A stretch of 64,000 bases of DNA from Planctomycetota bacterium (GTDB lineage Bacteria; Planctomycetota; UBA1135; UBA2386): the NCBI GenBank assembly GCA_965228735.1, contig OZ245838.1, positions 5,504,001 to 5,568,000 of the forward strand. The letters are read 5' to 3'. The notes under the pieces were generated by a model. The model saw only the letters and a list, made by a program, of their open reading frames with translations, made no database searches and had not been told where the DNA came from. This document shows positions 2-51,132 of the stretch, piece by piece (positions within the stretch are counted from its first letter, which is position 1; each line of letters opens with the position of its first letter). Made by a program: the position numbers and the translations under genes.

Positions 2-1171
2 GCGGAGGACTGGGCGCTGCAGCTGCTGCGCGACGTCGGTTGTGACAGGGTCTACGGCGAACTCTGCATGGTGCCCAACTGGCAGCGCGGCGTGGAGACC
101 GCGGCCGCGGGCGGCGCGACGCTGCCGCTCCGCGTGACCGCGCTCGGCGGCAGCGTCGGAACGCCGGCCGGCGGGCTCGAGGCCGAGGTCATCGAGGTGC
201 GCACGTTCGAAGAGCTGCACGAACTCGGTGACGCCGCCAAGGGCAAGATCGTGTTCTTCAACCGGCCGATGCCGCGCGCGTTCCGCCGCACGGGCCGGGC
301 CTACGGTGCGGCGGTTCCGCAGCGCAGCAACGGCGCGATCGAGGCGAGCAAGGCCGGCGGCATCGCCGCGATCGTGCGTTCGATGACGACCGCGATCGAC
401 GGCCACCCGCACACGGGCGCGATGCGCTACGACCACGCGGTCGAGCGCGTGCCCGCCGCGGCGGTCGCGACGGCCGATGCCGAGGCTTTGTCCAAGATGC
501 TCGCGGACGGTCCCGTGCGCGTGCGGCTCGAGCTCGGCTGCAAGACCCTGCCCGACGTCGAGGCGCGCAACGTGATCGGCGAGCTCCGCGGCAGCGAACG
601 TCCCGACGAGGTCGTCGTCATCGGCGGCCACCTCGACGCGTGGGACCTCGGCACCGGAGCGCACGACGACGGCGCGGGGGTCGTGCACTGCGTCGAAGCG
701 ATCCGGTTGCTCAAGGTGATCGGGTATCGGCCGAAGCGCACGATTCGGGTTGTGCTCTTCGCCAACGAGGAGAGCGGGCTGGCCGGCGCCAAGGCCTACG
801 CCGCGGCGCGCGACGCCGACGGCACGATCGGCAAGCACGTCGCCGCGATCGAGACCGACTCGGGCGGCTTCATGCCGATGGGGTTCTCGTGCTCACTGCG
901 CGGTGACGAGGCGGCTGCGATCGAACAGCTGTTCGCCCCGCTCGATCGCATCAACGTCGGCCTGTTCTTGCCGGGCGCAGGCGCGGGCGGTGCCGACATC
1001 AGCCAGCTGCACGCGCGCGGCGTCCCGTGCTTCGGCCTCTGGGTCAACGGCCAGCGCTATTTCGACTACCACCACACGGCGGTCGATGACCTGCCCGCGG
1101 TCAACGAGCGTGAACTGGCGATCGGTGCGGCGGTGATCGCGTATGCGGCGAGCGTGTTGGCGGATCGGTAG
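2..1171 (+). CDS. M28 family metallopeptidase (carboxypeptidase Q-like), 5' truncated by the window edge
   Basis: The frame is open from base 2. It has a PA-domain segment (KGKIVFFNRP) and the zinc-peptidase motifs GGHLDAWD, GAHDDGAG, FANEE, IETD and YFDYHH. Confidence 0.9.
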   Translation, partial: AEDWALQLLRDVGCDRVYGELCMVPNWQRGVETAAAGGATLPLRVTALGGSVGTPAGGLEAEVIEVRTFEELHELGDAAKGKIVFFNRPMPRAFRRTGRAYGAAVPQRSNGAIEASKAGGIAAIVRSMTTAIDGHPHTGAMRYDHAVERVPAAAVATADAEALSKMLADGPVRVRLELGCKTLPDVEARNVIGELRGSERPDEVVVIGGHLDAWDLGTGAHDDGAGVVHCVEAIRLLKVIGYRPKRTIRVVLFANEESGLAGAKAYAAARDADGTIGKHVAAIETDSGGFMPMGFSCSLRGDEAAAIEQLFAPLDRINVGLFLPGAGAGGADISQLHARGVPCFGLWVNGQRYFDYHHTAVDDLPAVNERELAIGAAVIAYAASVLADR

Positions 1172-1246
1172 CTGCCGCGGGCGGGGTCACGCCGCGAGAC
1201 GTGACGACCAATGTCGCGCTCGTGATCGAGGGCTGTCGAATTCGAG

Positions 1247-1789
1247 TTGGACGGATCCGTGGGAGACCTTGCCAAGAGTGTGACCCGTTCGCTGGCGAAC
1301 GTGATCGGCGTTCCACTCCGACGAGTCGTCATCCGCACCCTCGACGGCGAGATCAGCCACCGAGAGGAGCTTGCAGATCCGCGGCTCTACATCGGCGGCG
1401 AGGTGCGGCTCGACTTCGAGCCCCAGCCGGTGTTCGTGAGTTGGATCCAGAACGAGGGATGGCCGGTGTTCTGCTCCATCGGCGTGCGTTCGGACTCGCT
1501 ATTCATGCGGGAGTCGACGCTCGTTGATTGGGACGTCAGCAACTTGGTCCCTTGGAGCAAGTGCATCGATCAGCACCTACTCGCGGCCCGGGTCTTCGCC
1601 ATCGACGAGACACCACAGGTCGTGGAGTTCTCCTTCCACGATCAGGACTTCTGGATGGCGTGTGGTCGCGAGCAGGACGTCGGTGATGGTGACGACCTCC
1701 TGATTCGACCGGGCCCCTTCCCGGCGAATGAGCGCGCGACACTCGTTTGGCCGGTATCGCTCGACGGTCCAACAAGCCCCAGGAGCTGA
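1247..1789 (+). CDS. hypothetical protein
   Basis: 180-aa ORF with protein-like composition in a visibly less GC-rich patch. The start is uncertain. Confidence 0.6.
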   Translation: MDGSVGDLAKSVTRSLANVIGVPLRRVVIRTLDGEISHREELADPRLYIGGEVRLDFEPQPVFVSWIQNEGWPVFCSIGVRSDSLFMRESTLVDWDVSNLVPWSKCIDQHLLAARVFAIDETPQVVEFSFHDQDFWMACGREQDVGDGDDLLIRPGPFPANERATLVWPVSLDGPTSPRS

Positions 1790-1999
1790 CGAGTCGCGAG
1801 GAAACCCGTAGAAGAAGGAGCCCCGGCGATCTCGCGACGACCAGGGGCGGAAACGGCGGGCCGACCTTCCCGTCTGTCGAAGCATGGTGCAGCTGATGCT
1901 CGATCAAGAGGGCGAATCCTTCTGGGCCCGTACGGCCCAACACGGCGCAGCAGCCGATGATCGAAGACAACCGGATGATCCAAGCTCGCAGCACAGTCC

Positions 2000-2923
2000 A
2001 TGACGCACGAAAGAGAGAAGTTGAAGTGGGCAGTCCAGGTCTTGGCCATGCCGGGCGAGGTTCAGCGGCGGCTGTATCCAGACTTCGCGTGCAAGCCCGA
2101 CGAGTTGGCGCTCGAGTGGGACGAGGAGTTCCGCATGACGGCTGGATCTGAGCTGAGGCAAGTCCAACTGGAGGCCATGCAGCGTCTGGATCGCAAGCTC
2201 GAGTCGATGTCTCGGGATGGTCCGGACTTCAGTGAGGACCTCTGGGACGAATCAGCGTTGTGCACCTCTGCGCACGGGGCCTTGGTGCGAGAGCTCGGTG
2301 ACGCGGTGCTTCAACAGATGGCTTGGCCCAAGGAGTCTCCACCGGAAGTCCCGAGGCTCGTGGTGCCCATTACATTCCGGGGTAGTCTGGGCGTCCAGTC
2401 GAGTCAGGCAAACGAGATGGCGACCAACCGCAGTCTGGAGCAGCGATGGGAGACGCCTGTTTCGGATGCGCAGAGTCTCGCGATGGTCTCGTTGGTTGAT
2501 CAGGATGGGCTGCACATCACGGTGCAGGACAACCGTGACCGAGCCGGTCGGCGCTTTCGATTCTCCTTCGATCGCGTCGCGGCCTACCGGAGCATTCTGG
2601 AGGAGTATCGGACTAGCGATCCTCCGGCAGTCCAGCACGCCGGTTGGACCCGGGTCGCCCCAGGTTCGGCCTGGCTGTCCGACTTGCGTAGCCGTGAGCC
2701 GCTGCTCGATGTCCACAGCCCGGACTGCCGCCACTACATCATCGTGACCGAGGACGATGTCATCGATGTGCTCACACCGGAGGAGCCTCGAATCGTCGAG
2801 GTCGCGCCTGCGGGTGCCGGCGACCCCGCGCCAGGGAAGTCTGGCGTGCTCCACGACCCAGAAGATCGCGAGCAGATCGATGAGCTGCTTGATGATCTTC
2901 GCACTGATCGAGATGGTGCCTAA
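2000..2923 (+). CDS. hypothetical protein, possibly two immunity-protein-like units read in one frame
   Basis: The acidic N-terminal half (PDELALEWDEEF...EDLWDESAL) is followed by an internal ATG near 2417 (MATNRSLEQRWETP) that starts a distinct second half. Confidence 0.6.
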   Translation: MTHEREKLKWAVQVLAMPGEVQRRLYPDFACKPDELALEWDEEFRMTAGSELRQVQLEAMQRLDRKLESMSRDGPDFSEDLWDESALCTSAHGALVRELGDAVLQQMAWPKESPPEVPRLVVPITFRGSLGVQSSQANEMATNRSLEQRWETPVSDAQSLAMVSLVDQDGLHITVQDNRDRAGRRFRFSFDRVAAYRSILEEYRTSDPPAVQHAGWTRVAPGSAWLSDLRSREPLLDVHSPDCRHYIIVTEDDVIDVLTPEEPRIVEVAPAGAGDPAPGKSGVLHDPEDREQIDELLDDLRTDRDGA

Positions 2924-2950
2924 TCTGAGCTAGACGGATGAGTCAGGCGA

Positions 2951-3595
2951 ATGCCCGAGGTCATTCTCGAAGAGCAGCTCCTTGGCCTGCCTCCGCGGAT
3001 CAAGGTTGCGATCGGTGGCGTGTTGACCATCGGAGGCGGCGTCGCGTTCCGTGTTCTTTGGGACAAGGGTTGGCTGGCGGGCGCGGCCATCTTTGCTTTG
3101 GCGATGGGCGTCACGCTCGTGCTGTCCGGACGCAGCGAGCTTTCTCGAATCCGTGCGCACGATGCGGAGATGGAGAGGGCGCGACGGGAGTGGAACGAGC
3201 TCGAGCGCGGTGTTGACGGCGCCTTGCGAGACGGGCAGAGCGTCGTCCGCTTCTTACAAGCTCGTGGGTATCGTGATTACGCCGTCAGGCGATGGATCGC
3301 GGCAGAGCTGCGCGTCGATGCTCGTCGCGGTCAGCTCGAGTTCGAATCCGCGGGCGCGCCCTTCTCCGCCGATCAGTTCCGGCAGCTCTTCGAGCGGTTG
3401 GATGAGGTGAGTGGCACTGGCTACGAGTGCGATCATGAGTTCACTCTCACTCGTCGGTTCCTGGCGGAGCGGCAGCTGCCGACCGATGCCTCGCTCCGTT
3501 GGCTGGGGGAGCACGGAGCTGGCTGTGACTGCGAGGTCATCTTCAACGTCGCGCCGCAGTGGGGCTATCGAGTCGGTTTCGAGCCGCGGCCGTAG
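2951..3595 (+). CDS. two-TM membrane protein with a C-terminal DUF2695-like domain
   Basis: Two hydrophobic helices, then CDHEFTLTRRFL...WLGEHGAGCDCEVIFNV, which matches the DUF2695 pattern. Confidence 0.7.
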   Translation: MPEVILEEQLLGLPPRIKVAIGGVLTIGGGVAFRVLWDKGWLAGAAIFALAMGVTLVLSGRSELSRIRAHDAEMERARREWNELERGVDGALRDGQSVVRFLQARGYRDYAVRRWIAAELRVDARRGQLEFESAGAPFSADQFRQLFERLDEVSGTGYECDHEFTLTRRFLAERQLPTDASLRWLGEHGAGCDCEVIFNVAPQWGYRVGFEPRP

Positions 3596-3601
3596 AGTGG
3601 G

Positions 3602-4123
3602 CTACAACCCGACCGTCAGCGTCCCACCATTCGTCGCCAGCGGCGGGACGAACACCTGGCCCTGCTGCAGTCGCGACAGCAGGATCTGCTGATGCAGCTG
3701 CACGCCGACGAGATTCGACGTGTTCGGCACCGTGATGTCGAAGCTCGGCGAAGCATTGCTCGGCCAGCCCGGGGCGCAGCCGCTGTTGCTCATCACGTTC
3801 ATCGTCGTGACGGCATCGGGTGACACGAGCAGCGTGAAGCCCTGGGGCAGCTGCGCCGGCAGCGGGACGCCGCTCCAGGTCTGCTTCGAGAAGCCGGTGA
3901 GCAGCCACATCGCCCATGGCGTGATCGCGAGGGTGCAGCTGATCGGAGCGGGCGTGTAATCGACGGCGACGGAGAACGTCGTCCCGAGCTGCGGCAGGCC
4001 GGTCACGGTGAGGGCCTGGCCGTAGCTCGTCTCGCCGCTCGCCGAGCCGAAGAACGTGTAGCTCGCGGCCTGGGCCGAGAGGCCGACGGCGAGGGCGGCG
4101 GTGGTGACGCCGAAACGGATCAT
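3602..4123 (-). CDS. small secreted protein made almost entirely of the recurrent terminal domain
   Basis: Signal peptide MIRFGVTTAALAVGLSAQ. Domain motifs are GLPQLGTTF, GVPLP, VPNTSNLVGVQLHQQ and TNGGTLTVG. An alternative ATG lies at 4141. Confidence 0.7.
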   Translation of the reverse strand: MIRFGVTTAALAVGLSAQAASYTFFGSASGETSYGQALTVTGLPQLGTTFSVAVDYTPAPISCTLAITPWAMWLLTGFSKQTWSGVPLPAQLPQGFTLLVSPDAVTTMNVMSNSGCAPGWPSNASPSFDITVPNTSNLVGVQLHQQILLSRLQQGQVFVPPLATNGGTLTVGL

Positions 4124-14024: not shown

Positions 14025-15042
14025 CGATCGGCTCCTCGCTCGCGTCCCGGTTGCGATGGCCCGCGCGCGGCGGGCCGGCGTCGGCCTGCGCGGGCGTCGC
14101 GCCGGCGAGCCAGCGCAGGACGGGTGTCAGGTCCCGGCCGCCCTCGACCGCGGCTTCGAAGCCCTGGCTCACGAGTCGCAGCGGCCGCTCGGACTCGTGC
14201 GCCCGGAACACGGCGGCCGTGGCGTCCGCGAGCCGGAGTTCGAACTCGGCAGGGTCGCTGCAGCGACGGTCGACGAGGATCTGCTCCTCGATGTCCTGGC
14301 CGCCGGGTTCGCGTTCCTTCACCACGGGTTCGCCGCGGCGGGCCGACGCCTTCCAGTGCATGTCGCCGAGGCCGTCACCCGGGCGGAACGGCCGCAGGCC
14401 GGCGATCGCGGCGCTGCGACCGCCGCGGTAGGTGCCGTCGTCGCCGGCCAGTGCGCCGCGCCCGAACCGCGGGCCCCGGGCGTCGCCGTTCGTGCTCGGG
14501 TAGGTGACGAGCTCCGTCTCGGTGTCCGGCGTGAATGAGCGCGTGACGCGGAACAGCCCGAACGGGTACCGCGAACTGCAGTGCACCAGTGCGATGCGGC
14601 GCAGTCCGCGCTCTTGCCGTGGCAGCACGCACTCGAGTGGGCGTTCGCCTTTGGCGAGCGCGATGTGTGTCAGTTCGATCGGCGGCGATCGCTTGTCCGA
14701 GTCGTCGAACTCGAGCGTCACCGTCAGGTCGAACGCCGCGCGCCGGCTCGTGATGGCGAGCACGACCGGGCGGTCTGCGCCGGCGGGGGCGGCGGGCACA
14801 TCGGTGAGCCGCAACGTGACACCGGTGGTGTTGCGGGCGGACCACACGAGGCCGGTGAGCCCGAGCACCGCGCAGAACGCGATGATCAGGAAGAAGAGGT
14901 TGCTGTACGACGCGGCTAGGAACGCGATGACGAGCGCACCGAGCAGGAGCAGGCCCTTGAGGCCGAGCTCGGTCGGTCGCACTCGCGGGCGCGATCGCGT
15001 GGACGCGGAGCTCGCGCCCGAGGCTGCTGCGGCGCTTCGCAT
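14017..15042 (-). CDS. DUF58 family protein
   Basis: SSRYPFGLF and GLRPFRPGD..MHWKASARRGEPVVKE. It lies between MoxR and the transglutaminase. The start is uncertain. Confidence 0.88.
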   Translation of the reverse strand: MRSAAAASGASSASTRSRPRVRPTELGLKGLLLLGALVIAFLAASYSNLFFLIIAFCAVLGLTGLVWSARNTTGVTLRLTDVPAAPAGADRPVVLAITSRRAAFDLTVTLEFDDSDKRSPPIELTHIALAKGERPLECVLPRQERGLRRIALVHCSSRYPFGLFRVTRSFTPDTETELVTYPSTNGDARGPRFGRGALAGDDGTYRGGRSAAIAGLRPFRPGDGLGDMHWKASARRGEPVVKEREPGGQDIEEQILVDRRCSDPAEFELRLADATAAVFRAHESERPLRLVSQGFEAAVEGGRDLTPVLRWLAGATPAQADAGPPRAGHRNRDASEEPIGV

Positions 15043-15046
15043 CCGC

Positions 15047-16015
15047 TCAGAGCGGCACGTGGACCGCGTCGAGGATCTCCTGCAGCGTGCCGTGCACGGC
15101 CTGCGCTCCGCCGCTGTCGTTGCCGCCACGCAAGAACACGCGGTGGGCTAGCGTTGCCAGCGCGAGCGCCTTGAGGTCGTCGGGCACGAGGTAGTCGCGG
15201 CCGTCGAGCAACGCACGGGCCTTGGCCGCGGCGAGCCACGACAGCGCCGCACGCGGACTCGCGCCGAGCGCGATGTCGCAGTGTTCTCGCGTCGCACATA
15301 CGACGTCGTAGACGTAGCCCGCGAGCTTCTCGTCGACCTTGACGGCTGCGGCAGCCGCACGCAACGCGATGAGGTCTTCGGCCTCGATCACGGGCTGGCA
15401 GTTCTGCAGCGCGGTCTCGGAGTCGCGGCCGCTGTAGAGCGCACGTTCGTCGGCGGGTGCCGGATAACCGAGCTCGACGCACACGAGGAAGCGGTCGAGC
15501 GCGGCCTCGGGCAGCGGGTAGGTGCCGTGGAACTCGATCGGATTGCGCGTCGCGATCACCGAGAACGGCTGACCGAGCTCGACGGTTCGGCCCTCGATCG
15601 AGACGCGGCCGTTCTCCATCGCCTCGAGCAGGCACGACAGCGTGCGCGGACTCGTGCGGTTGATCTCGTCGGCGAGCACGAGGTTGGCGAACAGCGGGCC
15701 CTTCACGAACGAGAATCGGCCTTGGTCCGGCCGCCAGACGGCGGTCCCGACGACGTCGCTCGGCATCAGATCGTTGGTGAACTGGATGCGGCGGAAGGTG
15801 CCGTGCACCGACTCCGCGAGCGCGCGGGCGAGCATCGTCTTGCCGGTGCCCGGAACGCCCTCGACGAGCGCATGCCCGCCGGCGACGAGCGCGCAGAGCA
15901 GCGGTTCGAGCGCCGAGTCGGGGACGGTCACGACGTCCGCGATGTTCTGTTGGATCGCGATGCGCGCTGCCGCGGCGTCGACGGAACGATGGACTGCGTT
16001 GGCTGCTGCTGGCAC
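15047..16015 (-). CDS. MoxR family AAA+ ATPase
   Basis: Walker A GVPGTGKT, RIQFTNDLMPSD, LADEINR, NPIEFHGTYPLPEAALDRF and GASPRA. The start is approximate. Confidence 0.92.
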   Translation of the reverse strand: MPAAANAVHRSVDAAAARIAIQQNIADVVTVPDSALEPLLCALVAGGHALVEGVPGTGKTMLARALAESVHGTFRRIQFTNDLMPSDVVGTAVWRPDQGRFSFVKGPLFANLVLADEINRTSPRTLSCLLEAMENGRVSIEGRTVELGQPFSVIATRNPIEFHGTYPLPEAALDRFLVCVELGYPAPADERALYSGRDSETALQNCQPVIEAEDLIALRAAAAAVKVDEKLAGYVYDVVCATREHCDIALGASPRAALSWLAAAKARALLDGRDYLVPDDLKALALATLAHRVFLRGGNDSGGAQAVHGTLQEILDAVHVPL

Positions 16016-37934: not shown

Positions 37935-38996
37935 TCACGCCAACTCGAGAGCCACGGCGTCGGCGAATTCGCGGGTGCCGATCGGCGCGCGGTCGGCGGT
38001 CGTGAGGTCGGCGGTGCGGAGGCCTTTGGCGAGCGCGGCGTCCACTGCGGCTTCGATCGCGGCGGCGACCGCCGGCAGGCCGAGAGAATGGCGCGCCAGC
38101 ATCGCGGCGCTTTCGATCGCCCCGATCGGGTTGGCGAAGTTCTGCCCCGCAATGTCGGGGGCCGAACCGTGGACGGGCTCGAAGAGCCCCCAGGTGCCGT
38201 CGCCCAGGGAAGCCGACGGCAGGATACCGAGCGAGCCGGCGAGCACGCTGGCCTCGTCCGTCAACACGTCGCCGAACAGGTTCTCGGTCACGACGACATC
38301 GAAGTCGCGCGGCCGCTGCAAGAGGTGCATCGCCATCGCGTCGACGAGCAGGTGCTCGAGCTGGATGCCGTCGAACTCGCCTGCGACGTCGGTAGCGGTG
38401 TGGCGCCACAGTCGTGAGGTCGCCATGACGTTCGCCTTGTCGACCGACGTCACGCGGTTTCGCCGGCTGCCGGCGAGTTCGAACGCTCGCCGCACGACTC
38501 GGGTCACTTCACCGCGGGTGTAGCTGCACGTGTCGCTCGCGCGGTCGTCGCCCTCGACCTTGTCGCCGAAGTAGATCCCCGAAGTCAGCTCACGCACGAA
38601 CAAGATATCCGTGCCGCGCAGGCGTTCGGCGCGAATCGGCGAGCTGTCGAACAGGCACTCGCGCGGCCGAACCGGGCGGAGGTTGGCCCAGAGACCAAGC
38701 TCGCTGCGGATCCGGAGCAGGCCGGCCTCCGGGCGGTCGCCGCCATCGAGATGGTCCCAGGCGGGGCCGCCGACGGCCCCCATCAGCGCGGCGTCGGCGT
38801 TGCGGCAAGCGGCCAGCGTGGATTCTGGCAGCGGTTCGCCGTGTGCGTCAATCGCCGCGCCGCCGATCGTCGCCGACTCGGTTTGCAGCTCCAGGCCGTG
38901 CTGCGCCAGCGCCGCGCGGAGCACCTGAACGGCGGCCGACGTGACCTCGGGGCCGACGCCGTCTCCCGCCAGCACCGCGATGCGTACGCAGTTCAT
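37935..38996 (-). CDS. leuB: 3-isopropylmalate dehydrogenase
   Basis: [45 protein letters not shown] and [12 protein letters not shown]. Confidence 0.96.
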
Positions 38997-39097
38997 CGGC
39001 TGGCCTCCTCGCAGTTCGAGATCGCGGTCTCGCGTTCCAGCAGCTGGTCGAGGATGGTCGAGCGAACGACGTTCAGGGGGCGTCGCGATGGTTGCAT
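38993..39097 (-). pseudogene. leuD: probable leuD remnant with a large internal deletion
   Basis: A 34-aa frame, [34 protein letters not shown], in the leuD position. It starts 2 bp after the leuC-like stop and has an ATGA overlap with leuB. Confidence 0.5.
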
Positions 39098-39099
39098 GG

Positions 39100-39330
39100 T
39101 CAGTCGATGAGGTCTCTTCGATCGGTGATGCGGCCGGTCAACGCGGCGGCTGCGGTGAGCGGACTGGCCGAGAACGTGCGAGAGCCTCGCCCTCCGCTCC
39201 CGGAAGTTCCTGTTGGACGTGGACACTGCATAGCCGCCAGGTGGCACCTTATCGCCGTTCATCGCGAGGCACAGCGAGCAGCCGGGTTCGGCCCATTCGG
39301 CGTCGGCGTCGCGGAACACGCGCGCCGCCG
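39100..39330 (-). pseudogene. leuC: 3' fragment of leuC (frameshifted, 5' part missing)
   Basis: [39 protein letters not shown], then in another frame [30 protein letters not shown]. Confidence 0.85.
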
Positions 39331-39455
39331 CCCGCGGGTCCTCGAGGCGCTGGCGGGTCGTTCCTCGGCCGTCGAGCGTCGGTCGCGAGGCGGCGCGCTT
39401 CACCCGGGCCATGAGCCTGGCACGAAGCCGAGTGCGGTCTGGCTACGATGACGAC

Positions 39456-43284: not shown

Positions 43285-44751
43285 GTGGCTGCTCAACCGT
43301 CAGCTGTCGGATTGCCGAGAATCGTCGGATTCGCGGGTCTCGCCATCGCCTCGAGCGTCGCGTTCGGCACCTCACTGCCAGGGCAGGCTGCCGCGCCTTC
43401 GAACCAACGGCCCAAGTTCCAGTTCGTTCGTCAGAACGAGGATTGGTCCGAGTTCCGCCCGGGGGCCGAGGCGTCGATCCTCGATCGCGTGAAGCACCTT
43501 GCGCTCAACGAGTCCGGTGACGTCTGGATGTCGTTCGGTGGCCGCTTCGATGCACGCTTCGAGGCCTGGGACGGCTTCGGCTTCGGTGCGACGACGCCCG
43601 GCAACGCGGACGAGTTCCTGTTGTCGCGCGTGATCGCCCACGGCGATCTGCACGTCGGTGATCGCGTGCGGTTCTGGGTCGAGGGCAAGACCGCGCAGGT
43701 CCTCGGGCGCGACGACCTGCCCGGACGGCGTCGGGGCCTCGACCTCGACACGGCGGCGCTCTATCAGGCCTTCGCCGACGTCGAGTTGGCCGGTCGCGAC
43801 TCCGGCAGCGACGGGTCGCTGCGGCTGCGGGTCGGTCGGCAGACGTTCTTGTTCGGAGCACAGCGCTTCATCAGTCCGTTGCCCTGGGCCAACACGCTGC
43901 GGACCTGGGACGGAGTCTCGGCGCTCTACCGCACCGGGCCGTGGTCCGTGACCGGCTTCGCGAGCTACTTCGTGCCGGTGCAGAAGCGCAGCTTCAACGA
44001 CTCCGACGACGACCAGGAGTTCTACGGCATCTACGCGAGCCGCAAGCCCGCCGATGACGGCCGCGGCTATGACGCCTTCCTCGTCGGCAACACCCGGAGC
44101 AACGTCACGGTGAACGGCACGACGGGCAACGAACGTCGCCATACCCTCGGTCTGCGCACCTGGGGCGGCCTCGCCGAGGCTGCCGGCGGCATGTTCGACG
44201 CGGAGTTCGAGGGCGCGTACCAGTTCGGCGAGGTCGGCAGCAACGGCGTCAGCGCGTACTCGGTGACCGGCGTGCTCGGCTATCGCCCGGACGATTGGGC
44301 CGCAGACCCGCGGTTCTTCATCGGCGTCGACGCCGCCAGCGGCGACTCGCGCCCCGGTGGGCACGTGCAGACGTTCCATCAGCTGTTTCCGCTGGGACAC
44401 GCGTACCTCGGTCTGGCCGATGCGTTCGGTCGCCAGAACATCTTCGCGGTGCAGGTCGGCGCGCAGCTGCAGCTGGCGAAGCAGACCAGGCTCCAGCTCG
44501 TGGCGCACACGTTCCGGGCCATGGAGTCGGCGGATGGCTTCTACACGGTCGGGGGCGGCCGGGCGCGGCCGGGGCAGGTCGGCGATCGCGAACTCGGTCA
44601 CGAGATCGACCTCTTGCTCGATCATCGCTTCAACCGGCACCTGTCGGCCTACGGCGGCTACAGCCACCTGTTCGCCGGCGACGGGATCAGCGCCACCGGG
44701 CCGAGCGAGGACCAGATGTTCTTCTACCTCGGGGTGTCTGCCCTGTTTTGA
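43285..44751 (+). CDS. alginate export (AlgE-like) outer-membrane beta-barrel
   Basis: Signal peptide, R.NEDWS, LRVGRQ...GAQRFI, EFEGAYQFG, SGD, TFHQLFP, LGHEIDL and a terminal Phe. Confidence 0.85.
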   Translation: MAAQPSAVGLPRIVGFAGLAIASSVAFGTSLPGQAAAPSNQRPKFQFVRQNEDWSEFRPGAEASILDRVKHLALNESGDVWMSFGGRFDARFEAWDGFGFGATTPGNADEFLLSRVIAHGDLHVGDRVRFWVEGKTAQVLGRDDLPGRRRGLDLDTAALYQAFADVELAGRDSGSDGSLRLRVGRQTFLFGAQRFISPLPWANTLRTWDGVSALYRTGPWSVTGFASYFVPVQKRSFNDSDDDQEFYGIYASRKPADDGRGYDAFLVGNTRSNVTVNGTTGNERRHTLGLRTWGGLAEAAGGMFDAEFEGAYQFGEVGSNGVSAYSVTGVLGYRPDDWAADPRFFIGVDAASGDSRPGGHVQTFHQLFPLGHAYLGLADAFGRQNIFAVQVGAQLQLAKQTRLQLVAHTFRAMESADGFYTVGGGRARPGQVGDRELGHEIDLLLDHRFNRHLSAYGGYSHLFAGDGISATGPSEDQMFFYLGVSALF

Positions 44752-44794
44752 GAGCCCTGTTCTGAGAGGCCTGTTTCGAGGGTCGGAGCGGATC

Positions 44795-45451
44795 ATGACG
44801 GACGATGCACACGCGCCGGTTGGCGGCGACACAGCGGACTCGGGAGCGACGACGGATCGCCTGTCGTTCTCCTTCGCGTCCATCGGGATGCTCGCTGGCC
44901 TCGGCGCGGGCTACGGCACGCTCGGCTACTTCGGGTTCGAGTTCCTGAAACCGCAAGCCGGTTCGCGACGTGGCTGGATGCTCGTCCGGCCGGTCAAGGA
45001 GTTCACCGTCGGCGAGACGCTGCGGTATCGCACCCCTGGGGGCGCGACCGTCAACGTGACGCGGCGCAGCCCCGAGGCGTCGGCCGATGCGTTCAAGGCG
45101 CTGAGCAGCGTCTGCCCGCATCTCGGCTGTCAGGTCCACTGGGAGCCGCAGAACAACCGCTACTTCTGTCCGTGCCACAACGGCGCGTTCGACGCGGACG
45201 GCAAGGGCACCGGCGGTCCGCCTGCAGACGCCGGGCAGAGCCTCGGCGAGTACTCGCTGCGCGTCGAGCAGGGCCTGCTGTTCATCGAGGTCCCGCTCGA
45301 GACCCTCGCCGCGGTCGAGACCGTCGAGGAGCTCGATCGTGACCTGCGGGTCGCCGTGATCGAGGAGCTGCCGCCGGCCGACCGTTGCCCGCGTGGCGCC
45401 GGCCATGACCCGTGTCTCGCGCCGCGCGACCGGACGGGGCGTCCGGCATGA
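44795..45451 (+). CDS. Rieske 2Fe-2S subunit of a Rieske/cytochrome b complex
   Basis: CPHLGC and CPCHNG boxes, GPP and an N-terminal TM. It has an ATGA overlap with the cytochrome b gene. Confidence 0.93.
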   Translation: MTDDAHAPVGGDTADSGATTDRLSFSFASIGMLAGLGAGYGTLGYFGFEFLKPQAGSRRGWMLVRPVKEFTVGETLRYRTPGGATVNVTRRSPEASADAFKALSSVCPHLGCQVHWEPQNNRYFCPCHNGAFDADGKGTGGPPADAGQSLGEYSLRVEQGLLFIEVPLETLAAVETVEELDRDLRVAVIEELPPADRCPRGAGHDPCLAPRDRTGRPA

Positions 45452-46497
45452 CGGCGGTCGGCGATTGGTTTCGCGAGCGTCTGCCGCTGCAGGGCGATCA
45501 GCTCAAGGAACTCACCAACGAGCCGGTCCCGAACCATCTCAAACACTGGTGGTTCTGCCTCGGCGGCACGCCCGCGTACCTGTTCCTCGTGCAGATCGTG
45601 ACCGGCATCCTGCTCGCGTTCTACTACGAGGCGACGCCGAGCCGGGCCTACGAGTCGGTGCGCTTCATCTCCGAGGATGTGACCTTCGGGTGGTACCTGC
45701 GCGGCCTGCACCGGTGGGGAGCGACGCTCATGGTCGCGAGCGTGATCCTGCACCAGATGCGGGTCTTCTTCACGGGCGCGTACCGCAAGCCGCGCGAGAT
45801 GAACTGGATGATCGGCATGTGCCTGCTGATGTGCACGCTGGTCGTCGGGTTCACGGGTTACTGCCTCGTGTTCGAGCAACTGAGTTTCTGGGGCGCGCAG
45901 GTCGGGGCCGAGATCACCGACGAGGTGCCGCTCATCGGCGGGTTCATGAAGGAGATGCTGCTCGGCGGCGACGGCTACAACAAGAACACGCTGTCGCGCT
46001 TCTTCGTGCTGCACGCGGCCGTGCTGCCCGTCGTGATGATCCTGCTGATCTTCGTGCACATCACGTTCATCCGTCTGCAGGGCATCGCGGAGATGAGGTT
46101 CGGGGACGAGAAGCCCGACACGCCGCGGTTCTTCAACTTCTTCCCGGACCACGTCGCGACGGAAGTGATCATGGGACTGGTCCTCATGATCCTGCTCAGC
46201 GTGCTGGCGACCGTGTTGCCGGCGACGATGGGCGAGGTCGCGAACCCCAACGTCACGCCCGAGGTCATCAAGCCCGAGTGGTTCTTCTACGTGACGTTCC
46301 GCTGGCTCAAGTTGTTCTCGATCACCGCTGCGGTGCTCAGCATGGGCCTCATCGTCTTCCTCATGTTCGTCTGGCCGTTCATCGACGGCTGGGTGCGCCG
46401 CCGCTGGCCAGGATCCGAGTTCAGCGTCTGGGTCGGGATCCTCGCCGTGCTGGCGATCCTCGGCCTGACCATCTGGGAGGGCGCCGTCGCCCACTGA
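45448..46497 (+). CDS. cytochrome b (fused b6 plus subunit IV type)
   Basis: WFCLGG, heme-ligand His in LHRWGA...ILHQ and VLH-x14-H, GAYRKPRE and IKPEWFF. Confidence 0.95.
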   Translation: MTAVGDWFRERLPLQGDQLKELTNEPVPNHLKHWWFCLGGTPAYLFLVQIVTGILLAFYYEATPSRAYESVRFISEDVTFGWYLRGLHRWGATLMVASVILHQMRVFFTGAYRKPREMNWMIGMCLLMCTLVVGFTGYCLVFEQLSFWGAQVGAEITDEVPLIGGFMKEMLLGGDGYNKNTLSRFFVLHAAVLPVVMILLIFVHITFIRLQGIAEMRFGDEKPDTPRFFNFFPDHVATEVIMGLVLMILLSVLATVLPATMGEVANPNVTPEVIKPEWFFYVTFRWLKLFSITAAVLSMGLIVFLMFVWPFIDGWVRRRWPGSEFSVWVGILAVLAILGLTIWEGAVAH

Positions 46498-46546
46498 GCC
46501 GACGTTGCGCTCTGTCGCACCCGCTACCGCCTCCCTCAAATACGCC

Positions 46547-48166
46547 ATGTCCCTCCGCTTCAAGCAGTTCGTCATCGCCGTGCTCGGGCTGATGTTCCTC
46601 GGCTCGTTGATCTATGTGCAGCGCATGGAGGTGCTGCGCAAGGAGCACGAGACGGCCGGGCGCGATGCGCCGGTTGCCGTGCCCGCTTCGAGTCAGCGCT
46701 GCGTCGATTGTCACAGCCAGGGCAACCCCGGCATCGTCGATCAGTGGATGTACAGCACGCATGCCCACAAGGGCGTCGGCTGCGTCGAGTGCCACCAGGC
46801 CAACGAGGGCGATGCCGATGCGTTCTTGCACGAGGGCGCGCTGATCGCCGCGATCGTCACGCCCAAGGACTGTGGGCGCTGCCACGAACAGGTGTTCGAT
46901 GAGTTCACCCGCAGCCACCACGCGCGGGGCGGCAACATCCTGGCGTCGCTCGACAACTTCCTCGCGGAGAAGGTGGAGGGCAAACGTGACGACACGAAGG
47001 AGGGCGCGGCGCGGTTCGCCTTCAACCCGCATGGACCGACGCCTGGCCGTTCGGGCATGGGCGAGGTCAACGGCCAGGCGAGTGCGGTGCTCGGCTGCAT
47101 GCAGTGTCACGGCAGCAAGATCGCGCTGCTTGCAACCGACGGCTCGACGTTGACCCTCGACGAGCTGCGACCCGACGAGGCCGGGCAACCCACCAACCTC
47201 GCCGCGGTCGCGAAGATCAAGAAGGACGAGAGCGGCAAGCCGATGCTCGATCCGAGCACCTGGCCCAACACCGGCATCGGCCGCATCAACCTCGATGGTT
47301 CGCGCGGCAGCTGCACTGCGTGTCACAGTCGTCACGACTTCTCGCCGCGGCGCGCGCGCCAGCCCGAGAACTGCGGCAAGTGCCATCTGGGGCCGGATCA
47401 CCCGCAGAAGGAGATCTACGAGGAGTCCAAGCACGGAGTCGCTTATCGGGACCTCAAGGACCGCATGAACCTCGACGGTGCCGAGTGGGTTCTGGGGCAG
47501 GACTACACCGCGGCCCCGACGTGCGCGACCTGTCACATGTCCGGCCACAGCAAGAACGGCGGCGTGATCACGCACGACGTCGGTGAGCGGATCAGCTGGA
47601 CGAACCGGCCGCCGGTGAGCCTCGTGCTCGATACCGACGCCAACCACAAGGTCGTCAAGGAGACCGATCCGGCGAAGCGCCAGGCGCTGATCGCCGACTC
47701 GTGGCAGGACAAGCGCACGCGCATGCAGCAGGTCTGCATGAACTGCCACACCGGCGACTACGTCGGCAGCTTCTACAAGCAGTACGACGACCTGATCCAC
47801 CTCTACAACGAGAAGTTCGCCAAGCCAGGCAAGGCGATCGTCGACGCGCTGAAGAGCAACGAGCTGCTCACCGAGCGGCAGTTCGACGAGAAGATCGAGT
47901 GGACGTGGTTCTATCTGTGGCACCACGAGGGGCGCCGCGCGCGCCACGGCGCCTCGATGATGGCGCCCGATTACACGCACTGGCACGGCATGTACGAGGT
48001 CGCCGAGCGGTTCTACATGGAGTTGATTCCCGAGGCGCGGGAGTTGACCCACGCGGCCAAGGCTGCCGGCAAGAGTGGCGAGGCCGAGGCCGTCGACGCG
48101 GTCATCGACGAGATCCTGGCGCGGCCGGAGCACGCGGGCAACGTCGTCGAGCAACGCGACCACTGA
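46547..48166 (+). CDS. octaheme cytochrome c of the hydroxylamine oxidoreductase (HAO) family, probably the reductive type
   Basis: Eight CxxCH motifs (CVDCH, CVECH, CGRCH, CMQCH, CTACH, CGKCH, CATCH, CMNCH), CHSRHDFS, CHLGPDHPQ.EIY.ESKHG and an N-terminal TM anchor. Confidence 0.9.
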   Translation: MSLRFKQFVIAVLGLMFLGSLIYVQRMEVLRKEHETAGRDAPVAVPASSQRCVDCHSQGNPGIVDQWMYSTHAHKGVGCVECHQANEGDADAFLHEGALIAAIVTPKDCGRCHEQVFDEFTRSHHARGGNILASLDNFLAEKVEGKRDDTKEGAARFAFNPHGPTPGRSGMGEVNGQASAVLGCMQCHGSKIALLATDGSTLTLDELRPDEAGQPTNLAAVAKIKKDESGKPMLDPSTWPNTGIGRINLDGSRGSCTACHSRHDFSPRRARQPENCGKCHLGPDHPQKEIYEESKHGVAYRDLKDRMNLDGAEWVLGQDYTAAPTCATCHMSGHSKNGGVITHDVGERISWTNRPPVSLVLDTDANHKVVKETDPAKRQALIADSWQDKRTRMQQVCMNCHTGDYVGSFYKQYDDLIHLYNEKFAKPGKAIVDALKSNELLTERQFDEKIEWTWFYLWHHEGRRARHGASMMAPDYTHWHGMYEVAERFYMELIPEARELTHAAKAAGKSGEAEAVDAVIDEILARPEHAGNVVEQRDH

Positions 48167-48190
48167 GTGATCGACCCGAGGAACGACGAG

Positions 48191-50560
48191 ATGAGCGACC
48201 AACGACATCCGGATCGGCGCGGTTTCCTGCGCGCGCTGGCGTGCACGCCCGCCGTCGCCGCGTTCTCCGAGCGCGACCGCCGCGAAGCCGAGCAGCTGCG
48301 CACGGCCCACGGCGAGGCCCCGGCCGACCGCCTTCGTGACCTCGATTGGGCGAAGGCGCCGTGTCGCTACTGTGGGACCGGCTGCGGGGTCGAGGTCGGG
48401 GTGCGTGACGGCAAGGTCCAGGCCGTTCGAGGTGACGAGAACAGCCCCGTCAACAAAGGCCTGCTCTGCGTCAAGGGCTACCACCTGCCCGCGATGCTCT
48501 ACGGCAAGGACCGCCTCACGCGACCCATGCTGCGTCGCAACGGCGTCCTCGAGCCGATCTCCTGGGACGAGGCCCTCGACCTGATCGCGGAGAAGTTCGG
48601 GGCGGCGCTCGAGGAGAAGGGGCCGGACGGCGTGGCGATGTACGGCAGCGGCCAGTGGACGGTGTTCGACGGCTACGCGGCGCTGAAGTGGGTCAAGGGC
48701 GGGATGAAGTCGAACAACATCGACCCCAACGCCCGCCTGTGCATGGCCAGCGCCGTGATGGGATTCGTGACGCAGTTCCAGAGTGACGAGCCGATGGGGT
48801 GCTACGAGGACCTCGATGTCGGCCAGGACTTCTACCTCTGGGGCAACAACATGGCCGAGATGCATCCGGTGCTGTTCAGCCGGATGCTCGAGAACAAGCG
48901 CCAGAACCCGGACGTGCGCATCATCGACATCGCGACGCGCCGCACTCCGACGAGTGACTACGCGGATGTCTACGTCGAGTTCCGACCCGGCAGCGATCTC
49001 GCGCTCGCGAACGGCATCCTGCATCTGCTCGTGCAGAACGGCGGTGTCGACCGGGCGTTCGTCGACGAGAACTGCGTCTTCAAGCGCGGCATCGAGGATC
49101 TCGAGGAGATCGGCTACGGCTGCTTCGGCGAGCAGGCCGAGAGCTACGAGTTCAAGGATCAGGCGAGGGACTCGAGCTACGACGAACTCGTCGAGTTCTT
49201 GAACGACTACACCCCGGACAAGGTGGCCGAGACGACCGGGGTGTCCGTGGCGCAGATCGAGCTGCTCGCCGAGATGTACGGCGACCGGGCCAGACGCAGC
49301 GTCTCCCTCTGGTGCATGGGCGTGAATCAACACACCCGCGGCACCTGGATGAACAACCTGCTCAACGACATTCATCTGTTGACGGGCAAGATCAGCCGGC
49401 CGGGGAACAACCCCTTCAGTCTCACGGGGCAGCCGTCCGCGTGCGGCACGGTGCGTGAGGTCGGTACCCTGGCGAACCGGCTCCCGGCCGACATGGTCGT
49501 GATGAAGGAGGCGCATCGGCAGAAGGCCGAGGAGATCTGGAAGCTGCCGGCGGGCACGATCAATCCGCAACCCGGGCATCACGCCGTCGACATGTTCCGC
49601 GCGTTCGCGCGTGGCGACACGAAGGCGATGTGGGTGCAGGTGACCAACCCCTGGGTCACGATCCCGAACCTGCGCCGGATCGAGCGCCAGCCCGGCGACG
49701 GCAAGTTCCTCGTCGTCAGCGACATCTACCCGACGCCGACGACGGACGTGGCCGACCTCGTGCTGCCGTCGGCGGCCTGGGTCGAGCGCGAGGGTGTGTT
49801 CGGCAACACCGAGCGCCGCACGCAGCAGTGGAACAAGATGGTCGAGCCGCCCGGGGAGGCCAAGGAAGACGCCTGGCAGATCATCCAGGTCGCGCGGCGC
49901 ATGGGCATGGGGCACCTGTTTCCGTGGCCCGATGAGTCGTTCCACGAGGCGATGTTCGAGGAATACCGCAGCTTCGGACTCGGCACTGGCAAGGACCTCG
50001 CGAGCTACGAGCAGCTCAAGAAGGCGCCGGGTCTCATGTGGCCCGTCGTCGACGGCAAGGAGACGCGCTACCGCTACGCGGCGGGGTTCGATCCCTACGT
50101 CGAGAAGGCCAAGGGCGTGCACTTCTACAAGGCGAAGGGCTACGGCGAACGGGCCGCGATCTGGCTGCGGCCGTACCACCCGCCTGCGGAGGAGCCCGAC
50201 GAGGACTACCCGCTGTGGCTCTGCACCGGTCGCGTGCTCGAGCATTGGCACACGGGGTCGATGACGCGCCGTGTGGCGCAGCTGCATCAGGCCGTGCCCA
50301 GTGCCTACGTCGAGCTCAATCGCGCCGATGCGCTGCAGCTCGGGATCAACAACGGCGACAGCGTCCGGCTCGTGTCCAGGCGCGGTGAGCTCGAGATCGA
50401 GGCGCGGATCGACGGCCGCGGCAAGACGCCTGCGGGCTCCGTGTTCGTGCCGTTCTTCGACGAGAAGCTGCTCGTCAACGACCTCACGCTCGATGCGCTC
50501 GACTGCATCAGCAAGGAACCGGACTACAAGAAGTGTGCGGTCCGGGTAGAGCGGGCATGA
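48191..50560 (+). CDS. napA: periplasmic nitrate reductase catalytic subunit
   Basis: Tat motif DRRGFL, 4Fe-4S motif CRYCGTGC..CVKG, GSGQWT, NARLCMASA, SLTGQPSACGT, GRVLEHWHTGSMT and DYKKCAV. Confidence 0.95.
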   Translation: MSDQRHPDRRGFLRALACTPAVAAFSERDRREAEQLRTAHGEAPADRLRDLDWAKAPCRYCGTGCGVEVGVRDGKVQAVRGDENSPVNKGLLCVKGYHLPAMLYGKDRLTRPMLRRNGVLEPISWDEALDLIAEKFGAALEEKGPDGVAMYGSGQWTVFDGYAALKWVKGGMKSNNIDPNARLCMASAVMGFVTQFQSDEPMGCYEDLDVGQDFYLWGNNMAEMHPVLFSRMLENKRQNPDVRIIDIATRRTPTSDYADVYVEFRPGSDLALANGILHLLVQNGGVDRAFVDENCVFKRGIEDLEEIGYGCFGEQAESYEFKDQARDSSYDELVEFLNDYTPDKVAETTGVSVAQIELLAEMYGDRARRSVSLWCMGVNQHTRGTWMNNLLNDIHLLTGKISRPGNNPFSLTGQPSACGTVREVGTLANRLPADMVVMKEAHRQKAEEIWKLPAGTINPQPGHHAVDMFRAFARGDTKAMWVQVTNPWVTIPNLRRIERQPGDGKFLVVSDIYPTPTTDVADLVLPSAAWVEREGVFGNTERRTQQWNKMVEPPGEAKEDAWQIIQVARRMGMGHLFPWPDESFHEAMFEEYRSFGLGTGKDLASYEQLKKAPGLMWPVVDGKETRYRYAAGFDPYVEKAKGVHFYKAKGYGERAAIWLRPYHPPAEEPDEDYPLWLCTGRVLEHWHTGSMTRRVAQLHQAVPSAYVELNRADALQLGINNGDSVRLVSRRGELEIEARIDGRGKTPAGSVFVPFFDEKLLVNDLTLDALDCISKEPDYKKCAVRVERA

Positions 50561-51132
50561 ATCGGCGCTCGCGGGTCGTGGCCGTTGTCAGCGCAATGGC
50601 TTGGGTGGTTCTCGCGGCGCTCGCTGCGTGCGGCGACGACGAAGCCGGCAAGGTTCCGGTGCCCGGTCAGCCAGGCGCCCACAAGACGTCGGCGAAGGTG
50701 CGGGCCGAGCGCCGGCTGTTCGACGGCGCGCCGCCCGTGATCCCGCACCAGGACTTCGGGGCCGCGTGCCTGTCGTGCCACGAGCGCGGCATGATGGTGC
50801 CGGAGGTCGGCTACGCGCCGCCCGTTCCGCATGACGGCGTGCAGAAGCCGGGGGCGATGAGCCGGTGTCGCATGTGCCACGTCTTCGTCCGAACGGACAC
50901 GACATTCGCCGCGAGCACGTTCGTCGGTTTCGCACAGGACCTGCGCAAGGGCGCCCGGCTCAACGACCACGCGCCGCCCGTCATCCCGCACCAGATCCTG
51001 CTGCGCGAGAACTGCGGGGCCTGTCACGACGGCCCGGCTGCCCGTGAGGAGGTGCGCTGCAGTCATCCCGAGCGCGTGCGTTGTCGGCAGTGTCACGTGC
51101 CGCAGGTGAGCACGGACGTGTTCGGGCGCTGA
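50557..51132 (+). CDS. napB: NapB-like cytochrome c lipoprotein, tandem-duplicated (four hemes)
   Basis: Lipobox LAAC and two APPVIPH...CxxCH...CxxCH units (CLSCH, CRMCH, CGACH, CRQCH). It has an ATGA overlap with napA. Confidence 0.85.
   Translation: MNRRSRVVAVVSAMAWVVLAALAACGDDEAGKVPVPGQPGAHKTSAKVRAERRLFDGAPPVIPHQDFGAACLSCHERGMMVPEVGYAPPVPHDGVQKPGAMSRCRMCHVFVRTDTTFAASTFVGFAQDLRKGARLNDHAPPVIPHQILLRENCGACHDGPAAREEVRCSHPERVRCRQCHVPQVSTDVFGR

Follow-up and report, generated by a model that had tools for sequence, protein, structure and literature searches.

A Rieske/cytochrome b and octaheme cytochrome operon with periplasmic nitrate reductase genes in a Planctomycetota bacterium, a widespread arrangement and a candidate menaquinol-fed route for nitrate and nitrite reduction

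The 64,000-nucleotide stretch of a Planctomycetota genome analysed here (the window) carries an operon in which genes for a Rieske protein, a cytochrome b and an octaheme cytochrome c are followed by napA and a gene for a tetraheme cytochrome. The combination of Rieske/cytochrome b, octaheme and nap genes is widespread, and the idea of how it works is already in print. We describe its gene content, its cofactor motifs, the membrane anchors recognised by sequence and its synteny, in a genome where no rival NapC, NapD or NrfA was found. On balance we consider it probable that these genes encode a membrane-anchored periplasmic chain fed by menaquinol, in which Rieske/cytochrome b supplies the tetraheme cytochrome with NapA as well as the octaheme, replacing NapC, NapGH and NrfH.

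Six open reading frames on the + strand span positions 43285-51132, and both flanking genes lie on the - strand. The genes are co-oriented and as tightly packed as the preliminary description had stated, with successive intergenic gaps of 43, -4, 49, 24 and -4 bases; the two negative values are the ATGA overlaps that it had placed at the Rieske/cytochrome b and napA/napB junctions. CxxCH motifs occur, within the set of genes called in the window, only in the octaheme and the last gene, and the window is therefore without a cytochrome c1 or NapC, again as first described. No monoheme gene adjoins cytochrome b, the octaheme coming directly after it, which sets the operon apart from the bc1/b6f type. 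Contigs of three runs hold the stretch in one piece, and two of them may be the source DNA. A promoter scan of the locus gave no sigma-70 sites, and terminator-like matches numbered 5 against 4.1 expected. Consensus patterns for FNR, NarP/L, NtrC and NsrR-like sites showed no enrichment upstream of 64 Rieske genes, and our locus had none. A sigma-54-like pattern was found in 15 of the 64, against 2.5 in shuffled sequences and 11 in a control taken within the gene; with its matches coming partly from one clade, it was rejected as a general feature.

The Rieske protein (44795..45451, + strand; PF00355) carries the cluster motifs CPHLGC and CPCHNGAF, the first of them kept in all 66 homologues. 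Its G130 and F132, invariant across 65 rows, occupy the sites that are Ser and Tyr in high-potential Rieske proteins. The Tat motif of this strain reads R22-L23, one arginine having been lost (R23L); RR is present in 62 of the 66 homologues, and in a near-identical strain of run X9 base 44862 is G (Arg), giving R-R. With its Rieske Tat motif degraded in this way, the module may be less effective in this strain than in its relatives. Cytochrome b (45448..46497, +; PF00033) is a 349-residue fusion of a b6-like N-terminal part with a subunit-IV-like C-terminal part. It holds all four heme-b histidines (H88/H102/H189/H204) and a PEW-containing Qo motif, PEWF, and with the Rieske ligands these are the marks of a Rieske/cytochrome b complex. 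Cys37 falls at the heme c(i) site, a position that is Cys in 40 of 65 homologues and Ala in 24. The closest solved structures are those of cytochrome b6 (E 3.7e-57), and this gene is the sole PF00033 match of the genome.

Eight CxxCH motifs, an HAO fold and a distal Asp/His pair place the octaheme (46547..48166, +; PF13447) in the HAO family, whose proteins are trimers. The predicted model (pLDDT 76.6) has an N-terminal membrane helix at residues 3-35, and a fold search with it returned HAO family members as all of the top seven matches (Z 7.4-10.2). The closest solved sequence relative (E 4e-41 in a single-sequence and 1e-53 in a profile search) is PDB 4qo5, which we take to be IhOCC of Ignicoccus hospitalis; this archaeal protein can be aligned with the octaheme up to the C-terminal helices, with 27% identity in the structural alignment. 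D284/H285 are invariant over 78 rows and align with HDH D255/H256, and the whole heme-4 region is invariant among homologues. Once bridging homologues were included, both MAFFT modes put His478 in the column of the cross-linking Tyr462 of HDH; the placement came from this bridged alignment only, and aligning the C-terminal segment straight to HDH gave nothing significant. Of 80 octaheme sequences, 77 have His at this column and 3 have Gln. Excerpts of two papers indicate that His at the cross-link column marks reductive HAO forms (PMC12758564) and that HAOs without the Tyr reduce nitrite in vitro (PMC8042395). The octaheme is thus predicted, from its sequence, to be of the reductive HAO type with nitrite reductase activity, and the Asp/His pair together with His at the Tyr site supports the reductive, NrfA-independent role first proposed for it. 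An oxidative HAO/HDH (P460) was rejected, the cross-linking tyrosine being replaced by His478, and the automatic label of the octaheme, 'hydroxylamine dehydrogenase', suggests the wrong direction of reaction. The CxxCK active-site motif of NrfA and ONR was not found, all eight octaheme motifs being CxxCH.

NapA, the nitrate reductase catalytic subunit (48191..50560, or from a GTG at 48167; +), scores above both NCBIfam cut-offs (TIGR01706, 933.6 against 930.55; PRK13532, 966.2 against 904) and matches C. necator NapA with E 5e-242. Its Tat signal (RRGFL), [4Fe-4S] motif (CxxCxxxC...C) and Mo-ligand region with Cys-Met at the Mo site (ARLCMASA) complete the identification and are conserved in 32 homologues; a lipobox-like Cys is present in 21 of the 32 and not in this NapA. 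The last gene (50557..51132, +; PF03892, 26.8 bits) had been called napB, which did not hold as it stands, since it carries four CxxCH motifs, as do 30 of 30 homologues, and canonical NapB has two. The first and second halves can be aligned to one another as an internal tandem repeat, and the best solved match of its profile is NapB (1ogy_B, E 1.5e-5). The lipoprotein signal LAAC includes C25, a residue kept by at least 90% of 30 rows. We read it from these features as a tandem-duplicated lipoprotein, a tetraheme of two NapB-like diheme repeats standing where canonical Nap has a diheme NapB, and it is likely the direct electron donor of NapA. It agrees in heme number and position with NapM of Desulfovibrio and Caldithrix, as compared by description. 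The first gene (43285..44751, +; start codon uncertain) encodes an outer-membrane beta-barrel of the Alginate_exp family (PF13372, 230 bits, E 5e-68), an accessory protein that is likely an anion channel for nitrate or nitrite. It had been counted with the operon but is not a fixed member; a homologue lies on the same strand in just 7 of 80 loci, and 8 of 17 close-clade loci have one within about 10 kb. A porin-cytochrome conduit was set aside, the octaheme being predicted to be anchored in the inner membrane and most loci having no porin.

To count gene order around the octaheme we used only loci with enough sequence present upstream or downstream. Of the 78 loci that reach 300 bases or more upstream, 74 have cytochrome b directly upstream of the octaheme, and of the 65 that reach 2.5 kb or more, 60 have both Rieske and cytochrome b there. 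Going by record labels, the three-gene core occurs in at least seven phyla. napA follows the core in 35 of 74 informative loci and is absent from 39. The conserved synteny that had been expected therefore stands for the trio but not for nap, which is found in about half of the loci: the core is a stable unit, and napA with the tetraheme is an add-on drawing on it. Along the octaheme tree napA presence changes 13 times, at least 6 of these on well-supported branches. Of 36 core-only genomes, which are incomplete, about two thirds gave neither napA nor narG, which together with the 39 loci without napA indicates that nitrate reduction is not the primary role of the core. In the reverse search from the tetraheme, metagenome loci that were long enough had napA upstream in 78/78, the octaheme in 30/30, cytochrome b in 27/27 and Rieske in 23/23. 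The core accompanies this nap clade in 14 of 16 untruncated genome loci; two genomes have such napA and tetraheme genes without the core, napA being 5'-truncated in both. Recurrent neighbours of the core include Rrf2 regulators (8 loci), Crp/Fnr and Hcp (3 loci). The octaheme family is large, taking up at least 596 of the best 600 matched stretches in species-representative genomes and at least 7,999 of the best 8,000 scored proteins, and of 301 genomes sampled from the phylum 20 had the close tetraheme clade.

Which other proteins could feed NapA or reduce nitrite was examined in the rest of the genome, whose 93% completeness bounds every absence given here. It yielded no match to NapC, NapD, NrfA, NirS or HDH, only short partial matches to Cytochrom_D1, and NirK models all far below cut-off; the best NapH match reached 70 bits against a cut-off of 213 and is unlinked to the operon. 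The genome-wide check that the preliminary description had called for turned up no napC, napD, nrfA, nirS or nirK, with napH seen only far below cut-off. NapD was also above cut-off in 0 of 41 related genomes, a count in which a divergent chaperone could be missed. The 36 genomes with core and napA include 3 with a full-length match of the NapC/NrfH type and 3 with NrfA; NrfA was not found in the other 33, and surveys based on nrfA would therefore overlook them. Two genes of the futalosine pathway for menaquinone are present in our genome. In sister nap operons the place of Rieske/cytochrome b is taken by a cytochrome/FeS/NrfD quinol dehydrogenase: the 37 nap loci that have a tetraheme of this type comprise 16 with Rieske/cytochrome b and the octaheme, 18 with NrfD (17 of them also with a tetraheme c and an FeS partner), none with both donors and 3 with neither. 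This swap amounts to only one or two evolutionary switches and the locus counts are therefore not independent. On a Desulfobaculum plasmid a 37% homologue of the octaheme stands behind napC, and Nitrospira genomes show the same alternation of petBC or NapC (PMC12342949, in excerpt).

In the chain that we favour, menaquinol would be oxidised at the Qo site of a Rieske/cytochrome b complex with a low-potential Rieske cluster, predicted to lie far under +300 mV. Electrons would likely pass through the tetraheme to NapA, where nitrate would be reduced to nitrite, and to the octaheme for the reduction of nitrite, probably to ammonium. In the linear path first put forward, the octaheme would take the c1 position and hand electrons on to NapAB. 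For each electron delivered, a Q-cycle would translocate about one charge; no NapC-type system is known to move charge in this way. An otherwise aerobic cell would use the module when oxygen is low. Nap and octaheme reductases, taken by themselves, are regarded as non-electrogenic (excerpts of PMC5317091), and a Q-cycle donor, if real, would let periplasmic nitrate reduction and ammonification yield more energy. We only tentatively go further and speculate that the proteins form a self-contained, membrane-tethered and proton-motive supercomplex, in which a Q-cycle complex III drives NapA and an HAO-type nitrite reductase without NapC, NapGH, NapD or NrfA. If this were true, such a supercomplex would be present in hundreds of uncultured species of Planctomycetota, Acidobacteriota and Gemmatimonadota and would be invisible to nrfA-based surveys of DNRA.

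It is unlikely, though it is the strongest of the alternatives, that the same wiring serves nitrogen supply, or the detoxification of nitrite and NO with redox balancing, the octaheme making ammonium for uptake, a role already proposed for Nitrospira OCC. Nitrogen supply would suit a genome in which we found no NIR_SIR-family siroheme (assimilatory nitrite) reductase and, among five molybdoenzymes checked, no NasC above cut-off, and Nitrospira onr is expressed without ammonium (PMC12342949, in part). The core-only genomes that gave no nitrate reductase count in favour of this reading, and the Rrf2 and Hcp neighbours suit NO stress. Yet no ammonium transporter, PII or glutamine synthetase is among the annotated recurring neighbour families, the Tat signal makes NapA a periplasmic enzyme, and the sigma-54-like motif shows no excess over the within-gene control. 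We give a lower probability to a chain that ends at NO (or hydroxylamine) released by the octaheme, as in Kuenenia HAOr, and that would amount to partial denitrification rather than ammonification. HAOr, lacking the Tyr, has been proposed to go no further than NO in vivo (excerpts of PMC8042395), and Phycisphaerae octahemes have been suggested as replacements of NirK/NirS (PMC11266412). To the same side we assign the difference between His478 of the octaheme and the Trp of HAOr-like paralogues. The genome, however, offers no clear NO sink, as PF00115 matches only the aa3 and cbb3 oxidases and one weak candidate (49 bits), no NosZ was found and tblastn gave no Hcp; moreover the nap-pMHC locus of a cable bacterium is tied to 15N-ammonium formation (bioRxiv 2020.02.22.960823, in part).

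It is quite improbable that the octaheme is no catalyst and instead substitutes for c1/f, or buffers electrons, in a general complex III whose acceptors vary with the downstream genes. The membrane anchor, the constant position behind cytochrome b, the optional nap and the operon cytochrome b being the only one of the genome would agree with such a role. Against it, the catalytic Asp/His pair and the heme-4 region are invariant, octaheme homologues also stand behind napC or NrfD where bc genes are lacking, and aerobic respiration is already served by an ACIII fused to the aa3 operon, a cbb3 oxidase being encoded as well. Least probable of all, by a little, is that the two halves are merely co-regulated, with ACIII or another NrfD-type complex feeding NapA and Rieske/cytochrome b serving the octaheme alone: the genome does encode ACIII and a second NrfD-domain protein as quinol-oxidising candidates, and napA is patchy on the octaheme tree, but this nap clade comes with the core in 23/23 long metagenome loci and 14/16 untruncated genome loci, and sister nap operons bring their own donor within the operon.

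A full-text search of mostly open-access papers, without supplements, found no paper on a Rieske, cytochrome b, napAB and HAO operon or on napA with NrfD and a tetraheme in Planctomycetota. The module is nevertheless not unreported as first framed, its mechanism having been proposed for Caldithrix abyssi and the trio described in Nitrospira (excerpts of PMC5317091 and PMC12342949). The anammox-type framing found no support either. The Rieske/cytochrome b complex of Kuenenia (kuste4569-4574) shares a b6-like make-up with multiheme partners and an HAO-like protein, and the Tyr-less HAOr of Kuenenia (Kustc0458) reduces nitrite, our octaheme being likewise Tyr-less (PMC12954380, PMC8042395, both in excerpt). 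It differs in a split cytochrome b and subunit IV and an extra NAD(P) oxidoreductase, our cytochrome b being fused and the operon without a flavoprotein, and in a high-potential Rieske protein (+303/+335 mV, with Ser), ours having neither the Ser nor the Tyr (PMC12954380, as excerpted). We rejected identity with the anammox R/b complex given the fused 349-residue cytochrome b, an operon without that complex's NAD(P) oxidoreductase and separate multiheme c genes, and a genome in which no HDH was found; the Kuenenia-type homologue closest to the octaheme (44-48%) has no Rieske/cytochrome b nearby. DNRA loci of the nap-pMHC or nap-epsilon-Hao kind in cable bacteria, Beggiatoaceae and Campylobacterota likewise pair NapA with an HAO-family octaheme as an NrfA-independent route to ammonium; in the portions cited, these use NapGH, NapD, NapF and a diheme NapB, no Rieske/cytochrome b is mentioned and the authors argue for no energy conservation (bioRxiv 10.1101/2020.02.22.960823). 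In Nitrospira an OCC/ONR has adjacent petBC as its proposed electron donor, with NapC in place of petBC in a quarter of genomes (PMC6311188, PMC12342949, in part). The likeness, drawn by description, is that Rieske/cytochrome b adjoins an octaheme; the excerpts describe no napA or tetraheme with it and a nitrogen-assimilation cluster that is read as assimilatory.

The closest parallel is the nap cluster Cabys_2564-2556 of Caldithrix abyssi, which comprises napM, napA, napG/H, napF, Rieske, cytochrome b and epsilon-Hao in an organism that grows by nitrate reduction (PMC5317091, in excerpt). One locus there unites napA, a tetraheme, Rieske/cytochrome b without c1 and a Tyr-less octaheme, also without NapC and NrfA as far as the excerpts go, and NapM and epsilon-Hao are likened to our tetraheme and octaheme by description. 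Kublanov et al. (2017) proposed that quinol feeds Rieske/cytochrome b and this in turn NapM and epsilon-Hao with generation of pmf, naming ACIII and NapGH as alternative donors (PMC5317091, in part), which also speaks for the co-regulation of separate halves considered above. Gene order differs between the two operons and Caldithrix keeps NapGH and NapF. Its electron donor is therefore ambiguous, whereas our genome has no NapGH or NapF that we could find, and the stripped Planctomycetota operon is for this reason the cleaner test system for a Rieske/cytochrome b-fed chain.

The six genes of the operon (43285..51132, + strand) were called again in the window at the positions of the preliminary description, and the two ATGA overlaps it had noted, between the Rieske and cytochrome b (cyt b) genes and between napA and the last gene, were confirmed (gaps in gene order 43, -4, 49, 24 and -4 bases). 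Their products belong to the alginate-export barrel family, the Rieske family, the cytochrome b family, the multiheme family PF13447 with eight CxxCH (the octaheme) and NapA, which exceeds both curated cut-offs; the last shows a weak NapB match and four CxxCH. The operon stretch is unbroken in contigs of three runs. Elsewhere in the window, leuB (37935-38996) matches Iso_dh and adjoins a short leuC-like fragment (38993-39412) that appears broken, as judged by eye from its translation, and 2.4 kb without a called gene (1169-3604) falls within the lowest-GC bin of the whole window (0.64).

Synteny was followed in the best 80 of at least 596 confirmed octaheme relatives, and across these loci the core of Rieske, cyt b and octaheme proved conserved: where 300 bases or more of upstream sequence were available, cyt b lies directly upstream of the octaheme (74 of 78 loci), and where 2.5 kb or more were available, Rieske plus cyt b do so (60 of 65). 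In the same set napA is downstream in 35 of 74 loci with at least 1 kb (one at 2.7 kb), 25 of 26 have the tetraheme behind napA, and a porin stands on the same strand in 7 of 80. A reverse search of metagenomes from the tetraheme (best 80 of 399) found napA (78/78), octaheme (30/30), cyt b (27/27) and Rieske (23/23) at every long-enough locus. The operon is conserved and real. On a quick octaheme tree of 76 rows napA is patchy, with 13 changes, at least six of them on starred branches, versus 25.6 when shuffled. Among 36 core-only genomes narG passed the cut-off in five and was partial in two more, and napA was present elsewhere in eight; among 36 genomes with core and napA, three had a full-length NapC/NrfH-type match and three NrfA. 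Screening of 40 close relatives gave six genomes with a verified five-gene block, in which neither a full-length strong NapC nor NapD was found and one carried NrfA. A sigma-54-like site (TGGCAC-N5-CTGC) stands about 60 bases 5' of Rieske at five loci of one Planctomycetaceae clade (L018, L025, L030, L035, L046); it is missing from the window and was rejected as a general feature.

The last gene had been called napB; its NapB likeness stood but a diheme did not. Four CxxCH were present in 30 of 30 sequences examined, the two halves align to each other with PPVIPH...CxxCH...CxxCH in each, a lipoprotein-type Cys is present, and NapB is the best solved match of the profile; by these features it is a tandem NapB-like tetraheme. 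Tetraheme matches occurred in 53 of 301 genomes of the phylum (20 close, 33 distant), and we compared electron donors at 17 close and 20 distant loci. Rieske/cyt b with octaheme accompanied 16 of the 37 and an NrfD-type dehydrogenase 18 (three of these also with octaheme), none had both donors, and three had neither, one at a contig end and two with 5'-truncated napA. Since one or two switches on the NapA tree suffice for this distribution, it is a module swap observed once or twice and no statistical test. The loci L308 and L309 (genus g56, genomes of 2.6-2.7 Mb), with 5'-truncated napA and tetraheme and the core missing, are apparent operon remnants. At 18 of the 20 distant-clade loci we observed a sister Planctomycetota nap operon (L311-L329; e.g. 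L312:5420-11576, L119:1-9671) of napA, the same tandem-NapB tetraheme, a tetraheme c, a 4Fe-4S protein and NrfD, sometimes with napD, napGH or octaheme; the literature search gave no match to it. On a Desulfobaculum plasmid a 37% octaheme homologue is preceded by napC.

The best solved relatives of cyt b are cytochromes b6, and its heme histidines (H88/H102 and H189/H204) have b6-type spacing. It carries PEWF (PEW in 65/65 homologues), and Cys37, at the position of heme c(i) binding in b6, is Cys in 40/65. A longer cyt b of about 480-490 residues marks an operon variant at L006, L020 and L022; at L006 and L020 the porin is 3' of the tetraheme. The Rieske protein keeps both ligand boxes and has Gly and Phe where Ser and Tyr would raise the potential, although predictions of this kind can fail (PMC12954380), so we infer a low potential that would suit menaquinol. 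The Tat motif of this protein is R22-L23 here, against RR in 62/66 homologues; runs X1-X3 agree with the window, while a near-identical strain (run X9; 26 differences over 8,401 bases) has G at 44862, making codon 23 (44861-44863) Arg instead of Leu. Among the operon differences listed, no other one changes an amino acid of Rieske, octaheme or NapA. The broken twin-arginine motif represents a naturally occurring allele, and export may be weaker with it. In NapA the Tat, cluster and ARLCM Mo-region motifs are present; a lipobox-like Cys (AFSC/AYSC/ALSC) behind a short Tat signal in 21 of 32 homologues (L006-L079), suggesting a Tat-exported lipoprotein, is missing from the window NapA. No NapD was found with this clade in the related genomes searched.

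The octaheme starts with a single membrane helix. Among solved sequences 4qo5 is closest, then Kustc0458 and HAO, and all top seven fold matches were of the HAO family (Z 7.4-10.2); the five compact alignments among them cover 184-194 residues at an rmsd of 3.5-4.4. The invariant D284/H285 align to catalytic D255/H256 of hydrazine dehydrogenase (HDH). With 56 bridging homologues added, His478 shares a column with HDH Tyr462 in both MAFFT modes, and direct comparison of this segment alone was not significant; the site is His in 77 of 80 family sequences and Gln in three. His at the cross-link Tyr site has been described as the reductive ancestral state (PMC12758564). The octahemes of L121 and L122 (G038:C12, G031:C22), where the core is set among 13-, 11- and 8-heme cytochromes, have Gln at the His478 position.

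The window's own genome is one 7.19 Mb contig (93.4% complete), and the nearest relatives are labelled Planctomycetota. It gave no NapD, NapC/NrfH, NrfA, NosZ or siroheme nitrite/sulfite reductase in family searches; NapH reached 70 against a cut-off of 213, unlinked to the operon, NirK models gave eight matches of at most 47 bits against 296, and neither of two Cytochrom_D1 matches extended beyond about 100 positions. Menaquinone is indicated as the quinone by two futalosine-pathway genes. The operon's cyt b is the genome's sole PF00033 cytochrome b; alternative complex III directly precedes an aa3-type oxidase, and a cbb3 oxidase is also encoded, so that a separate quinol oxidase is available for aerobic respiration and the Rieske/cyt b pair is left spare for other use. 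The genome also holds a flavin/4Fe-4S oxidoreductase clustered with 23-, 7- and 11-heme cytochromes (L084:1704-11350; G000:C1 about 1,449,700-1,459,350), two Psr/Phs-like molybdoenzymes that have FeS partners, one of them carrying a fused NrfD domain (L104:6918-10549; L105:5320-8094 and 14248-15762), and a CBASS-type phospholipase (L105:3210-4244; 211 versus an NCBIfam cut-off of 200).

We propose that menaquinol is most likely oxidised at the Qo site, one electron then travelling by way of the Rieske cluster to hemes of the c type and the other returning via the b hemes. NapA would be fed via the tetraheme, reached through the octaheme or straight from the Rieske head, and the octaheme's own active site would also be supplied. 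The nitrate/nitrite couple lies near +420 mV and nitrite/ammonium near +340 mV. With menaquinone at about -70 mV (PMC12954380), the span would cover one charge per electron. The proposal is mechanistically coherent. bc complexes are dimers. HAO proteins are trimers (PMC8042395), so a literal cytochrome c1 seat for the octaheme, as earlier envisaged, is doubtful. The octaheme might halt at NO, as proposed for HAOr, the Kuenenia Tyr-less HAO Kustc0458 (PMC8042395); however, as no clear NO sink was found in the genome and related nap-pMHC loci have been linked to ammonium formation (bioRxiv 10.1101/2020.02.22.960823), ammonium is favoured over NO as the predicted product. An assimilatory role is possible because the genome lacks siroheme nitrite reductase. 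An anammox organism is rejected, as no HDH was found in the genome.

Our searches of open papers turned up neither a biochemical study nor any account of the stripped form with five genes, the tetraheme of tandem NapB type or the swap between NrfD and bc. The operon is of value as a clean system for testing proton-motive nitrate ammonification that does not depend on NrfA. Reviews of Nitrospira place OCC/ONR next to petBC, with NapC as an alternative (PMC6311188, PMC12342949), and Phycisphaerae octahemes have been described without bc genes (PMC11266412). In Caldithrix abyssi, Rieske, cyt b and epsilon-Hao accompany napM-napA-napGH, and the same electron path and pmf were proposed for it (Kublanov et al. 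2017, PMC5317091); its locus is like the operon in napA, Rieske, cyt b and octaheme but differs in also having napGH.
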